Sequence record: OR544955
Direction: 5' to 3' (one strand)
DNA: 64,000 nt
From: Escherichia phage vB_EcoP_EP32B
The notes beneath the pieces are model-generated. The model saw only the letters and a list, made by a program, of their open reading frames with translations, did not search any database and had not been told where the DNA came from. This document shows, one piece after another, positions 10,773 to 62,472 of this stretch (positions are counted from its first letter, which is position 1; each line of letters opens with the position of its first letter). Both the position numbers and the translations under genes were made by a program.

Positions 10773-11029
10773 GAATTATGTGTTATTATTAATTCATACC
10801 CTCTATTACCAAAGGTGCTCTAAAGTGCCTTTCATAATAGAAAGTTATTTAGGCCCTGTAGCTCAATGGTGCAGTAGCTGCTCTGGAAAACCTGTTCCAA
10901 ATTGCAACAGAAGAACGCGAAGAAGTTACATTATGGATTGAAGATAACGCAGGTCTGAATCTCCAGGACGCGATCTCATTATCCCACAATAGTATCACTG
11001 TTCAAGGCTGGGTATCATCTAGTTATTCT

Positions 11030-15976: not shown

Positions 15977-16068
15977 GGAACAAAATGAAAACTCCAACCT
16001 GTAATAATGTCGAGCCCAAGTGCGGTAATGGGTTGCCACGGAATGGCCCAACATAAAAGAGAAACTAA

Positions 16069-17502: not shown

Positions 17503-17890
17503 AGACATCAAAGGCTATAAGCCGCATACCGACGATAAAATCGGTAAAGTGAACGCTATTAAAGATGCAGAAGTTCGAGGAAAAATACTAATGGCTCAAA
17601 TCCTATCAGGCTTTGGAACTCATTATGAAGCATCTAGACGCATAACTGAAAGCAATCCTTTTGGCCTTGTTCCGAAGCACAAGAAAATTCAAAGCCTTGA
17701 TGACTTTGAGAACCGCCTATGGGCCCTCTTTAATGAGTACAAGGCATATCTGAAAGAAGACGCTGACGATTGTCTTGAAGAAGATGAGATTGCGTATTAC
17801 GAACAACGCCTTGAACAGCTCAAGAACTTCCATCAGGTTCGTGACGAAGTATCTAAAGCAGTTAAAAAGTTAATTCCTTTCAAAGAGTAG
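17492..17890 (+). CDS. hypothetical protein (132 aa)
   Basis: start at [12 protein letters not shown] overlapping upstream stop (ATGTCGATTGA); frame of track ORF 17324..17890. Confidence 0.5.
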
Positions 17891-40015: not shown

Positions 40016-41578
40016 ATGAAATCATTTAAATTAAATCGTGTTCGTTATCAAAACATCATGTCAGTAGGTGGGAATCCTATTGATATCCAATTAGATAAAG
40101 TCCAAAAGACATTAATCACTGGTAAAAATGGCGGTGGTAAATCTACGATGTTAGAAGCCATTACTTTCGGACTTTTCGGTAAACCATTTCGTGATGTTAA
40201 GAAAGGACAAATCATTAATAGCATGAACAAGAAAGAGCTCTTAGTTGAGCTTTGGATGGAATTCGATGATAAAAAATACTTCATTAAACGTGGCCAAAAG
40301 CCCAATATTTTCGAAATCTCCGTTGACGGTGTTCGTCTCGATGAATCTGCCAGCAGTCGTGACTTCCAAGAAGAATTTGAACGTAGCATCGGAATGTCAT
40401 ACGCGTCTTTTAAACAAATCGTTGTGCTTGGGACGGCAGGGTATACCCCTTTCATGGCTCTTAGCACCCCTGCTCGTAGAAAGCTTGTTGAAGACTTATT
40501 AGAAGTTGGCACACTCGCTGAAATGGATAAAATCAATAAGTCTCAAGTTCGCGAACTTAATTCTCAGGGACAAGTTCTTGATGCCAAGAAAGATGGTATT
40601 ATCCAACAAATTAAGATTTATAACGAGAATATCGAACGTCAAAAGAAATTATCTGGTGATAATGTAGCGCGTCTACAGAATATGTATGACGACCTAGCCA
40701 AAGAAGCTCGGTCATTAAAAGCAGAAATCGAAGAAGCTAATGAGCGACTACTTAATATCGTTCTTGATGAAGACCCTACTGAGGCATTCAACAAGATAGG
40801 ACAAGAAGCATTCTTGATTAAATCTAAAATTGACTCATATAACAAAGTTATTAAGATGTATCATGATGGCGGTACATGTCCTACTTGTGCATCACAGTTG
40901 CACCAGGGTGACCCTATTGTCTCTAAGATTACCGATAAGCTTCATGAATGTAATCACTCATTCGAGCAACTTACATGTCACAGAGATAATCTGAGTGTCC
41001 TAGTGGACGAATATAGAGCTAATGTCAAGACTAAACAGGACCTTGCATCTGATATTCGTACCAAGAAACAAGCAATGATTGCCACTATTGATAAAGCTAA
41101 GAAAGTTAAAGCTGCAATAGAACAAGCCTCAGCAGAATTTATCGACCATGCCGATGAGATAGCTTTGCTTCAAAAAGAACTTGATAAAATCATTAAAACA
41201 AAATCGGATATCGTTCTTGAAAAATACCATCGTGGTATTATCACAGATATGTTAAAAGATTCTGGTATTAAAGGTGCTATCATTAAAAAATATGTGCCTC
41301 TGTTCAACAAGCAGATTAACCATTATCTTAAAATCATGGAAGCTGATTACGTGTTTTCTATTGACGAAGAATTCAATGAATCTATAAAATCACGTGGCCG
41401 TGAAGAGTTCAGTTATGCTTCATTTAGTCAAGGCGAAAAAGCGCGTATCGATATCGCATTGTTGTTTACATGGCGAGATATTGCTGAAAAGGTCTCTGGT
41501 GTTAAAATCAACACAACGTGTTCATTATTTCTCACAGAGACCATGACCCACAAGCTTATGGACAACATCTTCAAATGA
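40016..41578 (+). CDS. 46: recombination ATPase subunit gp46 (Rad50/SbcC-like)
   Basis: 520 aa; Walker A GKNGGGKST, long coiled-coil, CPTC zinc hook. Confidence 0.9.
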   Translation: MKSFKLNRVRYQNIMSVGGNPIDIQLDKVQKTLITGKNGGGKSTMLEAITFGLFGKPFRDVKKGQIINSMNKKELLVELWMEFDDKKYFIKRGQKPNIFEISVDGVRLDESASSRDFQEEFERSIGMSYASFKQIVVLGTAGYTPFMALSTPARRKLVEDLLEVGTLAEMDKINKSQVRELNSQGQVLDAKKDGIIQQIKIYNENIERQKKLSGDNVARLQNMYDDLAKEARSLKAEIEEANERLLNIVLDEDPTEAFNKIGQEAFLIKSKIDSYNKVIKMYHDGGTCPTCASQLHQGDPIVSKITDKLHECNHSFEQLTCHRDNLSVLVDEYRANVKTKQDLASDIRTKKQAMIATIDKAKKVKAAIEQASAEFIDHADEIALLQKELDKIIKTKSDIVLEKYHRGIITDMLKDSGIKGAIIKKYVPLFNKQINHYLKIMEADYVFSIDEEFNESIKSRGREEFSYASFSQGEKARIDIALLFTWRDIAEKVSGVKINTTCSLFLTETMTHKLMDNIFK

Positions 41579-41617
41579 GCAAAGTTGGACGATTTACGGT
41601 AATGACTGTTTCATAAA

Positions 41618-45072: not shown

Positions 45073-47757
45073 ATGAAAGAATTTTACTTAACGGTTGAAC
45101 AGATTGGTGATTCAATTTTTGAACGTTACATCGATTCTAATGGCCGTGAACGTACTCGTGAAGTAGAATATAAACCATCACTGTTTGCTCATTGTCCAGA
45201 AAGTCAGGCTACGAAATATTTCGATATCTACGGTAAGCCGTGTACTCGTAAGTTGTTCGCTAATATGCGTGATGCCTCCCAATGGATTAAACGTATGGAA
45301 GATATCGGACTTGAAGCACTTGGCATGGACGATTTCAAATTGGCGTATTTGTCTGACACTTATAACTATGAAATCAAATACGACCATACAAAAATTCGTG
45401 TGGCTAACTTCGACATCGAAGTAACATCTCCGGACGGGTTCCCTGAGCCGTCACAAGCAAAACATCCGATTGATGCTATCACCCATTATGACTCAATTGA
45501 CGACAGGTTCTACGTATTTGATCTATTGAATTCTCCATATGGTAATGTAGAAGAATGGTCTATCGAAATTGCAGCTAAGCTTCAAGAACAAGGTGGTGAT
45601 GAAGTTCCATCCGAAATTATCGATAAAATCATTTATATGCCGTTCGATAACGAAAAAGAATTGTTGATGGAATATCTCAACTTCTGGCAACAGAAAACTC
45701 CTGTCATTTTGACTGGATGGAACGTTGAGTCATTTGATATTCCATATGTGTATAACCGAATCAAGAATATTTTTGGCGAATCTACTGCGAAACGTTTATC
45801 ACCACATCGTAAAACTCGTGTTAAAGTTATCGAAAACATGTATGGTTCTCGTGAAATCATTACATTGTTCGGTATCTCTGTTCTTGATTATATTGACCTT
45901 TACAAAAAATTCTCTTTTACCAATCAACCGTCGTATTCTCTGGATTACATTTCAGAATTTGAATTGAACGTTGGTAAACTGAAATACGACGGTCCTATTT
46001 CTAAACTTCGTTATAACATCATCGACGTATATCGTGTATTGCAAATTGATGCTAAACGCCAGTTCATTAACTTGAGTTTGGACATGGGTTATTATGCTAA
46101 GATACAGATTCAATCTGTGTTTAGCCCAATTAAAACATGGGATGCTATTATTTTTAATAGCCTTAAAGAACAAAACAAGGTGATTCCACAAGGTCGTTCG
46201 CATCCAGTTCAACCTTACCCGGGTGCTTTTGTTAAGGAACCTATTCCAAATCGATACAAATATGTAATGAGTTTCGACCTTACATCTCTGTATCCAAGTA
46301 TTATTCGCCAAGTGAATATTAGCCCGGAAACAATAGCAGGAACGTTTAAAGTAGCTCCACTGCATGATTATATTAACGCAATCGCTGAACGTCCTTCAGA
46401 TGTGTACAGTTGCTCTCCTAACGGCATGATGTATTATAAAGACCGTGACGGTGTTGTTCCAACTGAAATCACTAAGGTCTTTAATCAACGTAAAGAACAT
46501 AAAGGTTATATGCTTGCAGCTCAACGTAATGGTGAAATAATTAAAGAGGCATTGCATAATCCTAATCTTTCTGTTGACGAACCATTAGATGTTGATTATC
46601 GTTTCGACTTCAGCGATGAGATTAAAGAAAAGATTAAAAAGTTGTCTGCTAAATCTCTTAATGAAATGTTGTTTAGAGCTCAACGTACTGAAGTTGCAGG
46701 TATGACTGCACAGATTAACCGTAAATTGCTTATCAACTCACTTTATGGTGCACTTGGAAACGTTTGGTTCCGTTATTATGATTTGCGTAATGCTACTGCA
46801 ATCACAACATTCGGACAAATGGCTTTACAGTGGATTGAACGTAAAGTTAATGAATATCTGAATGAAGTTTGCGGTACAGAAGGTGAAGCTTTCGTTCTTT
46901 ATGGTGATACAGACTCTATTTACGTATCTGCTGATAAAATTATCGATAAGGTTGGTGAATCTAAATTCCGTGATACCAACCATTGGGTAGACTTCTTAGA
47001 TAAGTTCGCTCGTGAACGTATGGAACCTGCTATTGATAGAGGTTTCCGTGAAATGTGCGAATACATGAATAATAAGCAACATTTGATGTTCATGGACCGA
47101 GAAGCTATCGCTGGTCCTCCGCTCGGTTCTAAAGGTATTGGTGGATTTTGGACTGGTAAGAAACGTTATGCATTAAACGTGTGGGATATGGAAGGTACTC
47201 GTTACGCTGAGCCTAAACTCAAAATCATGGGTCTAGAGACTCAGAAATCTTCGACACCTAAAGCAGTACAGAAAGCTCTTAAAGAATGTATTCGTCGTAT
47301 GCTTCAAGAAGGTGAAGAATCATTACAAGAATATTTTAAAGAGTTTGAAAAAGAATTCCGTCAATTGAATTATATTAGCATCGCGTCGGTATCTTCTGCG
47401 AATAACATTGCTAAATATGATGTCGGTGGATTCCCTGGCCCCAAATGTCCGTTCCATATTCGTGGAATTCTGACATATAACCGAGCTATCAAAGGTAATA
47501 TCGATGCACCGCAAGTTGTAGAAGGTGAAAAAGTATATGTTCTGCCTTTACGTGAAGGAAACCCATTCGGTGATAAATGTATCGCATGGCCTTCTGGTAC
47601 GGAAATCACTGATTTAATCAAAGATGATGTACTTCATTGGATGGACTACACGGTTCTCCTTGAGAAGACATTTATTAAACCACTTGAAGGATTCACATCA
47701 GCAGCTAAACTCGATTACGAGAAGAAAGCATCTCTGTTCGATATGTTTGATTTTTGA
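45073..47757 (+). CDS. 43: DNA polymerase gp43 (family B)
   Basis: 894 aa; exonuclease motif FDIEV, polymerase motifs DxxSLYPS and YGDTDS. Confidence 0.95.
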   Translation: MKEFYLTVEQIGDSIFERYIDSNGRERTREVEYKPSLFAHCPESQATKYFDIYGKPCTRKLFANMRDASQWIKRMEDIGLEALGMDDFKLAYLSDTYNYEIKYDHTKIRVANFDIEVTSPDGFPEPSQAKHPIDAITHYDSIDDRFYVFDLLNSPYGNVEEWSIEIAAKLQEQGGDEVPSEIIDKIIYMPFDNEKELLMEYLNFWQQKTPVILTGWNVESFDIPYVYNRIKNIFGESTAKRLSPHRKTRVKVIENMYGSREIITLFGISVLDYIDLYKKFSFTNQPSYSLDYISEFELNVGKLKYDGPISKLRYNIIDVYRVLQIDAKRQFINLSLDMGYYAKIQIQSVFSPIKTWDAIIFNSLKEQNKVIPQGRSHPVQPYPGAFVKEPIPNRYKYVMSFDLTSLYPSIIRQVNISPETIAGTFKVAPLHDYINAIAERPSDVYSCSPNGMMYYKDRDGVVPTEITKVFNQRKEHKGYMLAAQRNGEIIKEALHNPNLSVDEPLDVDYRFDFSDEIKEKIKKLSAKSLNEMLFRAQRTEVAGMTAQINRKLLINSLYGALGNVWFRYYDLRNATAITTFGQMALQWIERKVNEYLNEVCGTEGEAFVLYGDTDSIYVSADKIIDKVGESKFRDTNHWVDFLDKFARERMEPAIDRGFREMCEYMNNKQHLMFMDREAIAGPPLGSKGIGGFWTGKKRYALNVWDMEGTRYAEPKLKIMGLETQKSSTPKAVQKALKECIRRMLQEGEESLQEYFKEFEKEFRQLNYISIASVSSANNIAKYDVGGFPGPKCPFHIRGILTYNRAIKGNIDAPQVVEGEKVYVLPLREGNPFGDKCIAWPSGTEITDLIKDDVLHWMDYTVLLEKTFIKPLEGFTSAAKLDYEKKASLFDMFDF

Positions 47758-47797: not shown

Positions 47798-48273
47798 ATG
47801 AAAACTACTCCTATTACTATCGCTATTGACGCAATCATAAAACAAGCTTCTTCTTTGGCCGCTATGGCCAAAGTAATTAGTCAAAACCCTGCTCGTTATA
47901 ATGCTATTCTAGAAACTCTTCGACGCCCTGGACTGAGTAATTATGAAAGTCGTGTAATTATTACAGGTGTTGGTAAGAACGCTAATATCGCAACTAAAGC
48001 TTCCGAGACATTTGCTTCACTCGGTATCCCGAGTATGTACTTGAACACTGGGCATTATTCTCACGGTGATGCAGGATTCATTGCGCCTAATGAGGCATCG
48101 CGGTAGAGGTTGATGAGAATTCTCTGGCTCCGACAATGTCTACTACATTGTTGTTAGCGCTTATCGATACGTTCGCTATCAACCTTTCGTCTGAACGTGG
48201 ATTTACCTCTAATGATTTCCTTAAGTTCCATCCAGGCGGTGCACTAGGTGCCATGTTACGAGGCGAACAATGA
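47798..48273 (+). pseudogene. SIS-domain sugar-phosphate isomerase (arabinose-5-phosphate isomerase KdsD/GutQ-like), disrupted
   Basis: N-terminal fragment RVIITGVGKNANIATKASETFASLGIPSMYLNTGHYSHGDAGFI stops at 48106; a different frame encodes the SIS C-terminus LAPTMSTTLLLALIDTFAINL...FHPGGALGAMLRG; central segment missing. Confidence 0.6.
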
Positions 48274-48454: not shown

Positions 48455-50140
48455 ATGAAAAAAGCTGTTATTCTTGGTGCTGGACTGGCAACTCGTTTGT
48501 ATCCAATAACGCATCATATTCCAAAAGTTCTTGTGAACTATAAACAAGACACTATTCTGAGCAATTTGTATACAATTTATTCTGACCTTGGCGCAGATGA
48601 AATTATTGTAGTAGTTCATTCAAAATTTGCTGAAACTGTTCGAGCTTATTGTGAGCAAGAAGGGTTCAATGTGACTATTCGTACAGTTGATGAAGCGTAT
48701 GGTTCTGCTTATGCTCTTGCTAAATTACACAAAGATTTAGATGGCCATAACGTAATTGTTAACTGGTGTGATATTATTCCTGATTTTGGTTCATGGTCTT
48801 GGAATGTTAATGCAATCTATGTTAAGGGTGACGAATGTCGATATAATTTTGACGGTGAAAATATCACTAACGTAGGTTCAACAGGTGGTAATGTTGTAGG
48901 AATTTATCAGTTCAAAGACTGGGAATTCTACATGGGTTCTACTGATGAGGAAATTCACGAATACTGCAAAGGTCGTGATTTCGTAGAATTCCTTTACGGC
49001 AGCGCATTCAATAAATCAGAGCTTATGAATCTAATTGATTTAGGTGATATGCCTAAACTTGAAAAAGCTCATGAAGTTCGTGAACTTAATCGTAGTTTTA
49101 ATGCAGTTGAAATTGGTGAAGAAACTGTAACTAAATTCGCATTAACCGAACAAGGTCGAGCTCTTCAAAAAGATGAGATTTCATGGTATTTGAAAGTGAA
49201 ATCAGATTCAGTTCCTCAGTTAGTTTCGGTAAATGAAAATAATTTTGAAATGGAACGCATTAAAGGTAAGCCGGCATTTGAATATATTAAATCCAAATCA
49301 AGTCTTGCTCGTCCACAAATTGTTGATGCAATTTTAGATGCACTGAAATTCAGCACAGACACTTATTTTGTAAGTCCTGAAACTGTTCGTCGTGATTTCA
49401 CTAAAGAATTCTATACGAAAGTTATTGATCGTTGTGAAAGCATTCAGCCATTGATTGATTCATTTGGTAAAATCACACACGTGAACTACACTAAGATTGG
49501 ACGTCTGAAGCCAATGCTGAAGCAAGCTTTAGAACATCTTATTCGTTATCATACCCGTTCTCAGGGACAGTACTCTGTTATTCATGGTGACCCGAACTTC
49601 AGTAATACTATGATTACTGATAATGGCGAAGTCAAGTTTATCGACCCTCGTGGATATTTTGGCGAAACCAAGATTTACGGGCCAAAATTGTACGATGAAG
49701 CTAAAGTGCTTTATGCTGTTTCAGGTTATGATGAATTCAACGCTAATCCGACCTGGGGACAGTTTACTATTGACGAAACAACTTGTAATGTGACTATTAA
49801 CATCAATCCATTAGTTTACAAATATGGAAAGATGAGTTCGTTTAACGAGTATCATCATTTGGCTGTAGCAATTATCTGGATTGCATTAGGTGGTTATTTC
49901 AAGAATAATCCACTTAAAGCGGTAGCCGCATATTATAAAGGTATGGAACTTCTGACTAAGCAATTACGTAACATGGGCCGTGTACTTCAAGACGGCTCTA
50001 TTAGTTATGACGTAGCAGAACCTGTAACGGCTACTCTGATTACAAAAAATCCTGGTAAATGGGTACTAACTGATAAAGAAACTGGTGTTTCTTATCGTCC
50101 AATCGGTGGCGATATCACTCATCAATGGGAACGAATCTAA
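48455..50140 (+). CDS. bifunctional sugar-phosphate nucleotidyltransferase / sugar kinase
   Basis: N-terminus VILGAGLATRLYP (NTP-transferase G-x-G-x-R signature); C-terminal kinase motifs HGDPNFSNTMI and FIDPRGYFG (aminoglycoside/choline kinase-like fold); 561 aa. Confidence 0.75.
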   Translation: MKKAVILGAGLATRLYPITHHIPKVLVNYKQDTILSNLYTIYSDLGADEIIVVVHSKFAETVRAYCEQEGFNVTIRTVDEAYGSAYALAKLHKDLDGHNVIVNWCDIIPDFGSWSWNVNAIYVKGDECRYNFDGENITNVGSTGGNVVGIYQFKDWEFYMGSTDEEIHEYCKGRDFVEFLYGSAFNKSELMNLIDLGDMPKLEKAHEVRELNRSFNAVEIGEETVTKFALTEQGRALQKDEISWYLKVKSDSVPQLVSVNENNFEMERIKGKPAFEYIKSKSSLARPQIVDAILDALKFSTDTYFVSPETVRRDFTKEFYTKVIDRCESIQPLIDSFGKITHVNYTKIGRLKPMLKQALEHLIRYHTRSQGQYSVIHGDPNFSNTMITDNGEVKFIDPRGYFGETKIYGPKLYDEAKVLYAVSGYDEFNANPTWGQFTIDETTCNVTININPLVYKYGKMSSFNEYHHLAVAIIWIALGGYFKNNPLKAVAAYYKGMELLTKQLRNMGRVLQDGSISYDVAEPVTATLITKNPGKWVLTDKETGVSYRPIGGDITHQWERI

Positions 50141-50526
50141 TGCACCGTGTAGAAAACATGCTTAATCTTTGTTTTGATGTCGATGATTGTATAACAGAGT
50201 GGAATAACAATCGTGATTACGTGAACTTCAAACCAGACGTCGAAATGGTGACTGCTATTAATGCCCTGTATGATGCAGGGCATACCATAACGCTTTACAC
50301 TGCTCGTGGTATGAAGTCAGTAGGTCCTGGTCGTATAGCAATTGACATTCTCCCAAGTCTGATTCAGAACTTGGAAAACATTGGTTTGAAGTACCATAAT
50401 TTGCTAACACATAAACCAGTATATGATTGGATTATCGACGACAAAGCTATGCGTCCCGACGAATTCAAAGCTCTTATGAATAAAGGCGAATTCGAAACAT
50501 TTAAATCATATAAACCGAATCTATAA
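50140..50526 (+). CDS. HAD-superfamily phosphatase
   Basis: motif I FDVDDCIT, later DWIIDDK; start MHRVEN overlapping upstream stop. Confidence 0.6.
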   Translation: MHRVENMLNLCFDVDDCITEWNNNRDYVNFKPDVEMVTAINALYDAGHTITLYTARGMKSVGPGRIAIDILPSLIQNLENIGLKYHNLLTHKPVYDWIIDDKAMRPDEFKALMNKGEFETFKSYKPNL

Positions 50527-62011: not shown

Positions 62012-62326
62012 ATGGCGCACTTTAATGAATGTTCACAACTTATTTCTGGTGTTGATAAAGCAGAAGAAGCTTATTTTAATGCTCTGATTCACGAAGATAA
62101 AGACCCACTTCAGGTAATGCTTGATATGCAGAAATCTTTACAGGTTCGTCTGGCAAATGACAAGCCTGAACATAACAAACATCCTGATGAATTGGCTACT
62201 GCCGGTGATGTTGTTGATTGGCTGCGTAATCAGAAAGATTATATTGATGATGAATTCCGTGAACTGTTGACTTCACTTGGTGGTATGATTATAAATACAC
62301 CTGTAATTAAACAACAAAGGAGTTAA
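62012..62326 (+). CDS. 56: dCTP pyrophosphatase gp56-like (MazG-type), short form
   Basis: MAHFNECSQLISGVDKAEEAYF...ATAGDVVDWLRNQKDYIDDEFRELLTSLG; 104 aa, shorter than T4 gp56 as recalled. Confidence 0.65.
   Translation: MAHFNECSQLISGVDKAEEAYFNALIHEDKDPLQVMLDMQKSLQVRLANDKPEHNKHPDELATAGDVVDWLRNQKDYIDDEFRELLTSLGGMIINTPVIKQQRS
62290..62297 (+). promoter_or_regulatory. late promoter TATAAATA upstream of soc
   Basis: exact TATAAATA about 32 bp before soc ATG, within the 3-prime end of gene 56. Confidence 0.5.
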
Positions 62327-62328
62327 TT

Positions 62329-62472
62329 ATGGGTGGTTATGTAAACATCAAAACCTTTACGCATCCTGCTGGTGAAGGCAAAGAAGTTAAAGGTATGGAA
62401 GTTTCTGTACCGTTTGAGATTTATTCAAACGAACATCGGATTGCTGATTCTCATTACCAAGTAAGTGGTTAA
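62329..62472 (+). CDS. soc: Soc-like small outer capsid protein, shortened (47 aa)
   Basis: GYVNIKTF...HYQVSG resembles Soc N-terminus and extreme C-terminus; AAGGAG Shine-Dalgarno; terminator immediately downstream. Confidence 0.55.
   Translation: MGGYVNIKTFTHPAGEGKEVKGMEVSVPFEIYSNEHRIADSHYQVSG

Follow-up and report, generated by a model that had tools for sequence, protein, structure and literature searches.

The DNA analysed here, referred to as the window, is a 64,000-nucleotide stretch of sequence record OR544955 (Escherichia phage vB_EcoP_EP32B). Judged by its matches, the window can be placed in the genome of an RB69-like T-even coliphage (Mosigvirus). A 761-bp query taken round the isomerase gene matched 154 phage records at 90-98% identity, all of them from Mosigvirus-type coliphages or Shigella phages, and the nearest relatives over 24 kb were E. 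coli O157 typing phages 3, 6 and 13 (97.9%), with a value of 97.5% for RB69, in which the counterpart of the window occupies roughly 13.4-86.6 kb of the genome. The order of genes at the locus (DNA polymerase, isomerase, small ORF, kinase/nucleotidyltransferase and HAD-like phosphatase) is the same as in RB69, pEB20 and typing phage 3, and the features are collected in Table 1. The isomerase gene, by its sequence, is a homolog of RB69 gp55, a predicted SIS-domain arabinose-5-phosphate isomerase; the RB69 counterpart is a continuous protein of 211 aa, annotated as arabinose 5-phosphate isomerase, and in the window the gene is found in two pieces. The start of the small ORF that follows overlaps the isomerase stop codon (ATGA), which suggests translational coupling; the RB69 annotation of this ORF is shorter. 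The 561-aa ORF carries a Pfam NTP_transferase match at its N-terminus and weak kinase-like matches at its C-terminus, whereas Pfam gave no match for the RB69 gp51 protein. Both the AfhE-like and the AfhF-like genes of the cluster are intact in the window. The arabinosyltransferase gene (RB69p003 type) is present in RB69, outside the genome part that corresponds to the window. A promoter and terminator scan returned nothing informative.

The cluster has been linked to the modification of phage DNA. RB69 ORF055c was proposed to take part in the synthesis of UDP-arabinose for the arabinosylated cytosine of RB69 DNA (Thomas et al., 2018; PMC6024577). In the pathway model of a 2026 NAR study, gp55 converts Ru5P to arabinofuranose-5-phosphate (Araf5P), the C-terminal kinase domain of gp52:53, the AfhE-like next enzyme in the arabinose-activation pathway, converts Araf5P to arabinofuranose-1,5-bisphosphate (Araf1,5P), gp51, an AfhF-like HAD-type phosphatase, converts Araf1,5P to arabinofuranose-1-phosphate (Araf1P), and the N-terminal domain of gp52:53 forms UDP-arabinofuranose from Araf1P, after which arabinosyltransferases modify the DNA (PMC13326640).

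Table 1. Features at the isomerase locus and gaps across the window, in window coordinates.
Feature	Position	Strand	Length of gap	Remarks
gp43 DNA polymerase	45073..47757	+		T-even; immediately 5' of isomerase; own 27-bp in-frame gap
Isomerase N-terminal part (RB69 gp55 homolog)	47798..48093	+		Codons 1-98 plus 2 nt
Gap junction in isomerase	48093..48094	.		Microhomology is a single ambiguous A only
Out-of-frame tail of 102-aa ORF	48094..48106	+		E-A-S-R, then stop
Isomerase C-terminal part	48094..48273	+		RB69 codons 153-211 plus stop, other frame
Conserved hydrophobic small ORF, 47 aa	48270..48413	+		Protein as in typing phage 3 (100% identity); hypothetical in relatives
Bifunctional nucleotidyltransferase/kinase (RB69 gp52:53, AfhE-like), 561 aa, intact	48455..50140	+		99.8% identity to typing phage 3
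RB69 gp51 homolog, 128 aa, intact	50140..50526	+		100% identity to typing phage 3
Gap	6312		77 bp	Last 25 codons of gp4 (head completion)
Gap	9402		614 bp	ipI-like gene and hypothetical gene
Gap	10636		24 bp	In frame
Gap	10870..10871		4925 bp	From 19 nt into tRNA-Met to inside small hypothetical gene
Gap	13070		92 bp	Frameshift, hypothetical gene
Gap	13913		35 bp	Frameshift, e.2 membrane protein
Gap	15992		about 419 bp	Internal-protein region, naturally variable
Gap	17577		146 bp	vs.4-like hypothetical gene
Gap	19972		446 bp	Two hypothetical genes and tk (thymidine kinase) codons 1-19, P-loop
Gap	28076		133 bp	Frameshift, nrdC.5-like gene
Gap	30239		216 bp	Codons 3-74 of hypothetical gene
Gap	31089		190 bp	Two tiny ORFs after pinA
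Gap	34225		298 bp	Hypothetical gene and first 9 codons of nrdH-type glutaredoxin
Gap	34914		28 bp	Frameshift, hypothetical gene
Gap	39863		14 bp	Frameshift, gp46.1
Gap	41514..41515		88 bp	gp46, out of frame, Walker B LILDEVFD lost
Gap	46030 (near 46012-46030)		27 bp	gp43, in frame
Gap	48093		160 bp	Isomerase
Gap	59618		24 bp	In frame
Gap	59771		4 bp	Frameshift, gp61.2-like gene
Gap	60156		12 bp	In frame
Gap	62287..62288		594 bp	gp56 dCTPase residues 93-173 and two small virion-protein ORFs
Gap	about 62459		94 bp	soc homolog cut after residue 45

The first reading of the window had described the gene as a KdsD/GutQ-type SIS isomerase divided between two frames with its central segment missing, and both parts of this description were borne out. 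In a three-way alignment of the window, RB69 and pEB20, the gap is clean, single and exactly 160 columns long, and residues 99-152 of RB69 gp55, DVLIHISRSGKTEEMIGVAKHLKMIRPNVKQILLHCNPDIPQENEALFDYSFCT, are gone, with the frame shifted by the loss. The first ORF (47798-48106, 102 aa) ends in ...HGDAGFIAPNEASR and a stop codon. The second frame reads ...FHPGGALGAMLRGEQ with its stop at 48273, and in the list of open reading frames it ends, in a frame different from that of the first ORF, in ...GGALGAMLRGEQ at 48273. The C-terminal frame had been said to begin about 10 bp after the first; it starts instead at the junction, at 48094, so that the first ORF runs on into it for its final 13 nt. In the C-terminal frame a TGA directly precedes 48094, and the first ATG is found at 48136, 42 nt in. 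In its amino acids the N-terminal part agrees with RB69, pEB20 and typing phage 3 at every position (100%), with 6-8 synonymous nucleotide differences, and the C-terminal part, with 5 synonymous nucleotide differences, is likewise 100% identical in amino acids to the relatives. Over the retained 476 bp this amounts to 11-13 nucleotide differences and 0 amino-acid differences against the same three phages. The complete agreement (100%) of both parts with the RB69 gp55 protein rules out a chance resemblance. When the 160 bp are re-inserted from any relative, a continuous ORF of 211 aa is restored, identical to the protein of the relatives and to RB69 gp55. In typing phage 3 the 160 bp occupy NC_041863.1 121237-121396. 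The earlier note had named a single continuous ORF of about 160-190 codons in a corrected sequence as the outcome that would refute it, and the restored ORF agrees with this in spirit, though not in length.

What is lost is the core of the SIS fold. The intact RB69 homolog matches Pfam SIS (PF01380) over residues 51-181, scoring 41.9 bits where the cut-off is 25, whereas the two window fragments (102 aa; 45 or 54 aa) are both without a Pfam match at E <= 1, so that no SIS profile match is obtained for the window copy. Nor does any single ORF span the whole fold, the first stopping at 48106 and the C-terminal frame lying behind the TGA. The intact phage protein matches 3ETN (E = 2.6e-25), 5UQI (4.1e-23) and the SIS domain of E. 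coli KdsD, 2XHZ (3.5e-19). In the alignment to 2XHZ, the N-terminal part corresponds to KdsD residues 49-97, and the GxGK block (KdsD Lys59) and the HGD block (KdsD His88) are retained within 47798-48093 as GVGKNANIA and YSHGD (2XHZ positions 56-64 and 86-90). The block that aligns to KdsD Glu152 is also retained. The lost block corresponds to KdsD residues 98-147 and includes the Ser/Thr-rich loop ISNSGESSE and the catalytic glutamate, Glu111. The Ser/Thr-rich phosphate-binding block I-S-x-S-G-x-T/S-x-E (KdsD 103-111) is therefore lost from the window copy, its phage version HISRSGKTEE falling wholly within the lost segment. The activity of RB69 gp55 as a Ru5P to A5P isomerase is predicted from sequence and fold.

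Comparison with related phages, as the earlier note had proposed, shows the break to be peculiar to the window. Among the matches listed for the 761-bp query, all relatives are covered in two pieces over about 921 bp, with the 160 bp present. Of 269 phage records, 261 carry an intact isomerase, counted as a single tblastn piece with coverage of 80% or more; T4-like phages of Serratia, Erwinia, Yersinia, Proteus, Enterobacter and Acinetobacter are among them, with identities as low as about 58%. In these tblastn matches no relative shows the split architecture. The 24-mer across the junction had no match in viral, metagenome and genome collections, which do not hold the window's own backbone either; a 32-mer with window-specific SNPs just upstream of the isomerase gave 0 matches in the same collections. 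No match was found in E. coli complete genomes and plasmids, and an exact-protein look-up returned no record for the truncated 102-aa product or for the intact 561-aa neighbour.

The break in the isomerase is not an isolated event. A full comparison with typing phage 3, with RB69 as a second reference, revealed about 23 gaps in the window, from 4 to 4925 bp long (Table 1), and the comparison with typing phage 3 comprised 15 large breaks and several small ones. Of the 15 large gaps, thirteen have a length not divisible by three; microhomology at the junctions amounts to 0-2 nt almost throughout and at no gap exceeds what chance would give. Nearly all lost segments are present and contiguous in RB69 as well as in typing phage 3, and the gaps are therefore specific to the window, where they far outnumber window-specific insertions. 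The lost segments have a GC content of 0.33-0.47 (window: 0.37), apart from one of 35 bp at 0.66; composition bias was rejected as a cause, the lost segments being neither GC-rich nor hard to sequence. ARAGORN found no tRNA genes in the window, whereas the relatives carry tRNA-Met and tRNA-Arg at this locus, a difference explained by the 4925-bp gap that begins in tRNA-Met. Two stretches, 15992-16034 and 17578-17879, gave no clean alignment to typing phage 3 or RB69 and belong to the hypervariable internal-protein/vs region. Gaps in hypervariable regions, for example those at 15992, 17577 and 31089, may be genuine strain differences.

Translation bears out the damage to several genes. Gene 46 (Rad50/SbcC-like, 40016-41613) has lost, on translation, everything after residue 500, including the C-terminal 62 residues, and every phage record among the matches listed has the 88 bp, its match breaking into two pieces at this junction. 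The translation of the gp56 dCTPase (62012-62460) ends after residue 92 of 173. DNA polymerase gp43 has 894 aa instead of 903, having lost residues 314-322 of the RB69 protein (ESNHQRYIS), which directly precede the Exo III motif Y323-NIID327; apart from this loss the protein differs from that of RB69 by a single amino acid. Genes 46, 56 and 4 are essential in T4. With gp46, gp56 and gp4 frameshifted or truncated, the genome as written could not be viable or make plaques.

Outside the gaps, the sequence bears the marks of a genome under purifying constraint. In eleven intact genes, 165 of the 183 substitutions against typing phage 3 are at third codon positions, and RB69 has the window allele at 85 of 179 informative differences. 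This third-position bias, together with the alleles common to RB69, indicates that the backbone is that of a real genome, moulded by selection and by recombination. A sequence randomised in silico was rejected on the same substitutions, 90% of them at third positions and half of them common to RB69. The rest of the window is of high quality, and no scattered frameshifts occur in the large genes; such accuracy is unusual for a merely sloppy assembly and to that extent counts against an artefact. A pseudogene of any age, or drift tolerated through compensation by the host, would not leave an isomerase with 0 amino-acid changes, and the remnants, being free of such changes, point to no time spent as a pseudogene.

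From the gap, its uniqueness, the pattern of gaps and the pattern of substitutions, we infer that the 160-bp gap very probably arose technically, as a deletion in the supplied sequence, and is not a property of the replicating phage. Contigs or low-coverage intervals may have been joined without Ns, runs of Ns may have been stripped, or the sequence may have been edited deliberately or by accident; such joining, stripping or editing fits the many clean N-free gaps, their broad range of lengths, their frame-random placement and the accuracy elsewhere. Because the break in the isomerase is one of about twenty clean and unselected gaps, some of which destroy essential genes, it is read as an artefact and not as a gene loss, and the phage itself most likely has no split gene at this position. 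Two ordinary mechanisms of deletion or insertion were considered and rejected. Replication slippage is unsupported, since no direct repeats bracket the endpoints of the 160 bp in an intact relative and the two sides have only one ambiguous A in common (microhomology of 1 nt). A mobile element or intron acquired by the relatives does not account for the difference either, since the 160 bp are read in frame and specify the conserved SIS core, which aligns to 2XHZ and 3ETN. The real gene at this position is almost certainly an intact, 211-codon homolog of gp55, predicted to encode an SIS-domain arabinose-5-phosphate isomerase. The predicted enzyme would convert ribulose-5-phosphate to arabinose-5-phosphate, which would feed the adjoining AfhE-like kinase/uridylyltransferase and AfhF-like phosphatase to yield UDP-arabinose, and this in turn would be used for the arabinosylation of modified cytosine in the phage DNA.

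The deletions could also be physically real on a defective, non-viable molecule, such as a genome maintained through co-infection, a construct made by mutagenesis or engineering, or a chimeric consensus derived from a mixed population. The clean junctions, the accurate remaining sequence and the excess of gaps over window-specific insertions agree with such a molecule. However, about twenty independent deletions would have had to accumulate within 64 kb, none of them seen in roughly 150 relatives, which demands an extraordinary unselected history, and we know of no T-even biology that yields about twenty such deletions on one molecule. This origin is regarded as unlikely; were it correct, the isomerase would be truly broken on that molecule, though not as an adaptation.

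A natural inactivation of the isomerase in a viable phage is a further alternative. E. coli encodes KdsD and GutQ, and loss of the phage isomerase alone might thus be tolerable, the host supplying arabinose-5-phosphate from either of its two arabinose-5-phosphate isomerases to downstream pathway genes that are intact in the window. Against this stand gp46, gp56 and gp4, broken in the same window and leaving a genome that as written is not viable, the remnants with their unchanged amino acids, the intact gene in 261 of 269 phage records, and the unique junction, whose 24-mer is absent from viral, metagenome and genome collections. Such inactivation is considered very improbable. The narrower variant, in which a plaque-forming phage truly carries the 160-bp deletion and dispenses with its isomerase through host KdsD/GutQ, while the other gaps are separate artefacts or tolerated losses, is likewise very improbable. 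The earlier note had left the choice between an inactivated gene and an assembly error: about 23 unfiltered gaps and the lack of any amino-acid change speak for the second and not for inactivation backed by host KdsD/GutQ, a reading that is superfluous here and fits poorly with the remainder of the window. Finally, a functional split or recoded gene, whose two polypeptides or programmed frameshift would rebuild the enzyme, could appeal to two open frames that jointly cover both ends of the SIS domain, but is effectively refuted by the absence of the fold core, as the lost part is 53 core residues, the S/T-rich loop among them, rather than a linker, a TGA stands directly before the C-terminal frame with its first ATG 42 nt in, neither fragment scores against Pfam SIS and no relative has this architecture, and its probability is close to nil.

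The technical reading of the gap has little to offer as biology, since this isomerase is well conserved and has been described before as part of the RB69-type DNA-arabinosylation cluster. Its weight lies in quality control. With about twenty silent, N-free gaps in the window, apparent gene losses in it are to be distrusted, and pseudogenes, truncations, a missing tRNA or gene fusions are suspect until checked against a relative. The same caution applies in the window to gp43, gp46, gp56, gp4, tk, soc and nrdH, and to other observations made on this stretch.

Among known systems, the window copy may first be set beside RB69 gp55 (RB69ORF055c, NP_861745.1): it occupies the same position, its 157 retained residues are 100% identical and its nucleotide identity is 97%, but 160 bp (codons 99-152) are absent and the frame is shifted. 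The intact phage protein aligns over residues 48-206 with bacterial enzymes of the KdsD/GutQ/KpsF type (2XHZ, E. coli KdsD; 3ETN, Bacteroides fragilis; 5UQI) and has the GxGK, HGD, ISxSGxTxE and PTxSTT blocks in common with the bacterial A5P isomerases; at 211 aa it consists of an SIS domain alone and has no counterpart to the CBS pair found in KdsD. In the window copy, the block aligned to KdsD residues 98-147 is gone. Apparent gene splits that proved to be errors of the record are known from the same genomic neighbourhood in the RB69 group. The 561-aa gene, fused in the window, is split into ORF053c/052c in the RB69 GenBank record by a 1-nt sequencing error (PMC6024577), a precedent from the very same cluster, and gp46:47 is likewise a gene split by an error of the record (PMC13326640). 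Those errors are of a single base, whereas the loss in the window is of 160 bp and forms part of a window-wide set of gaps.
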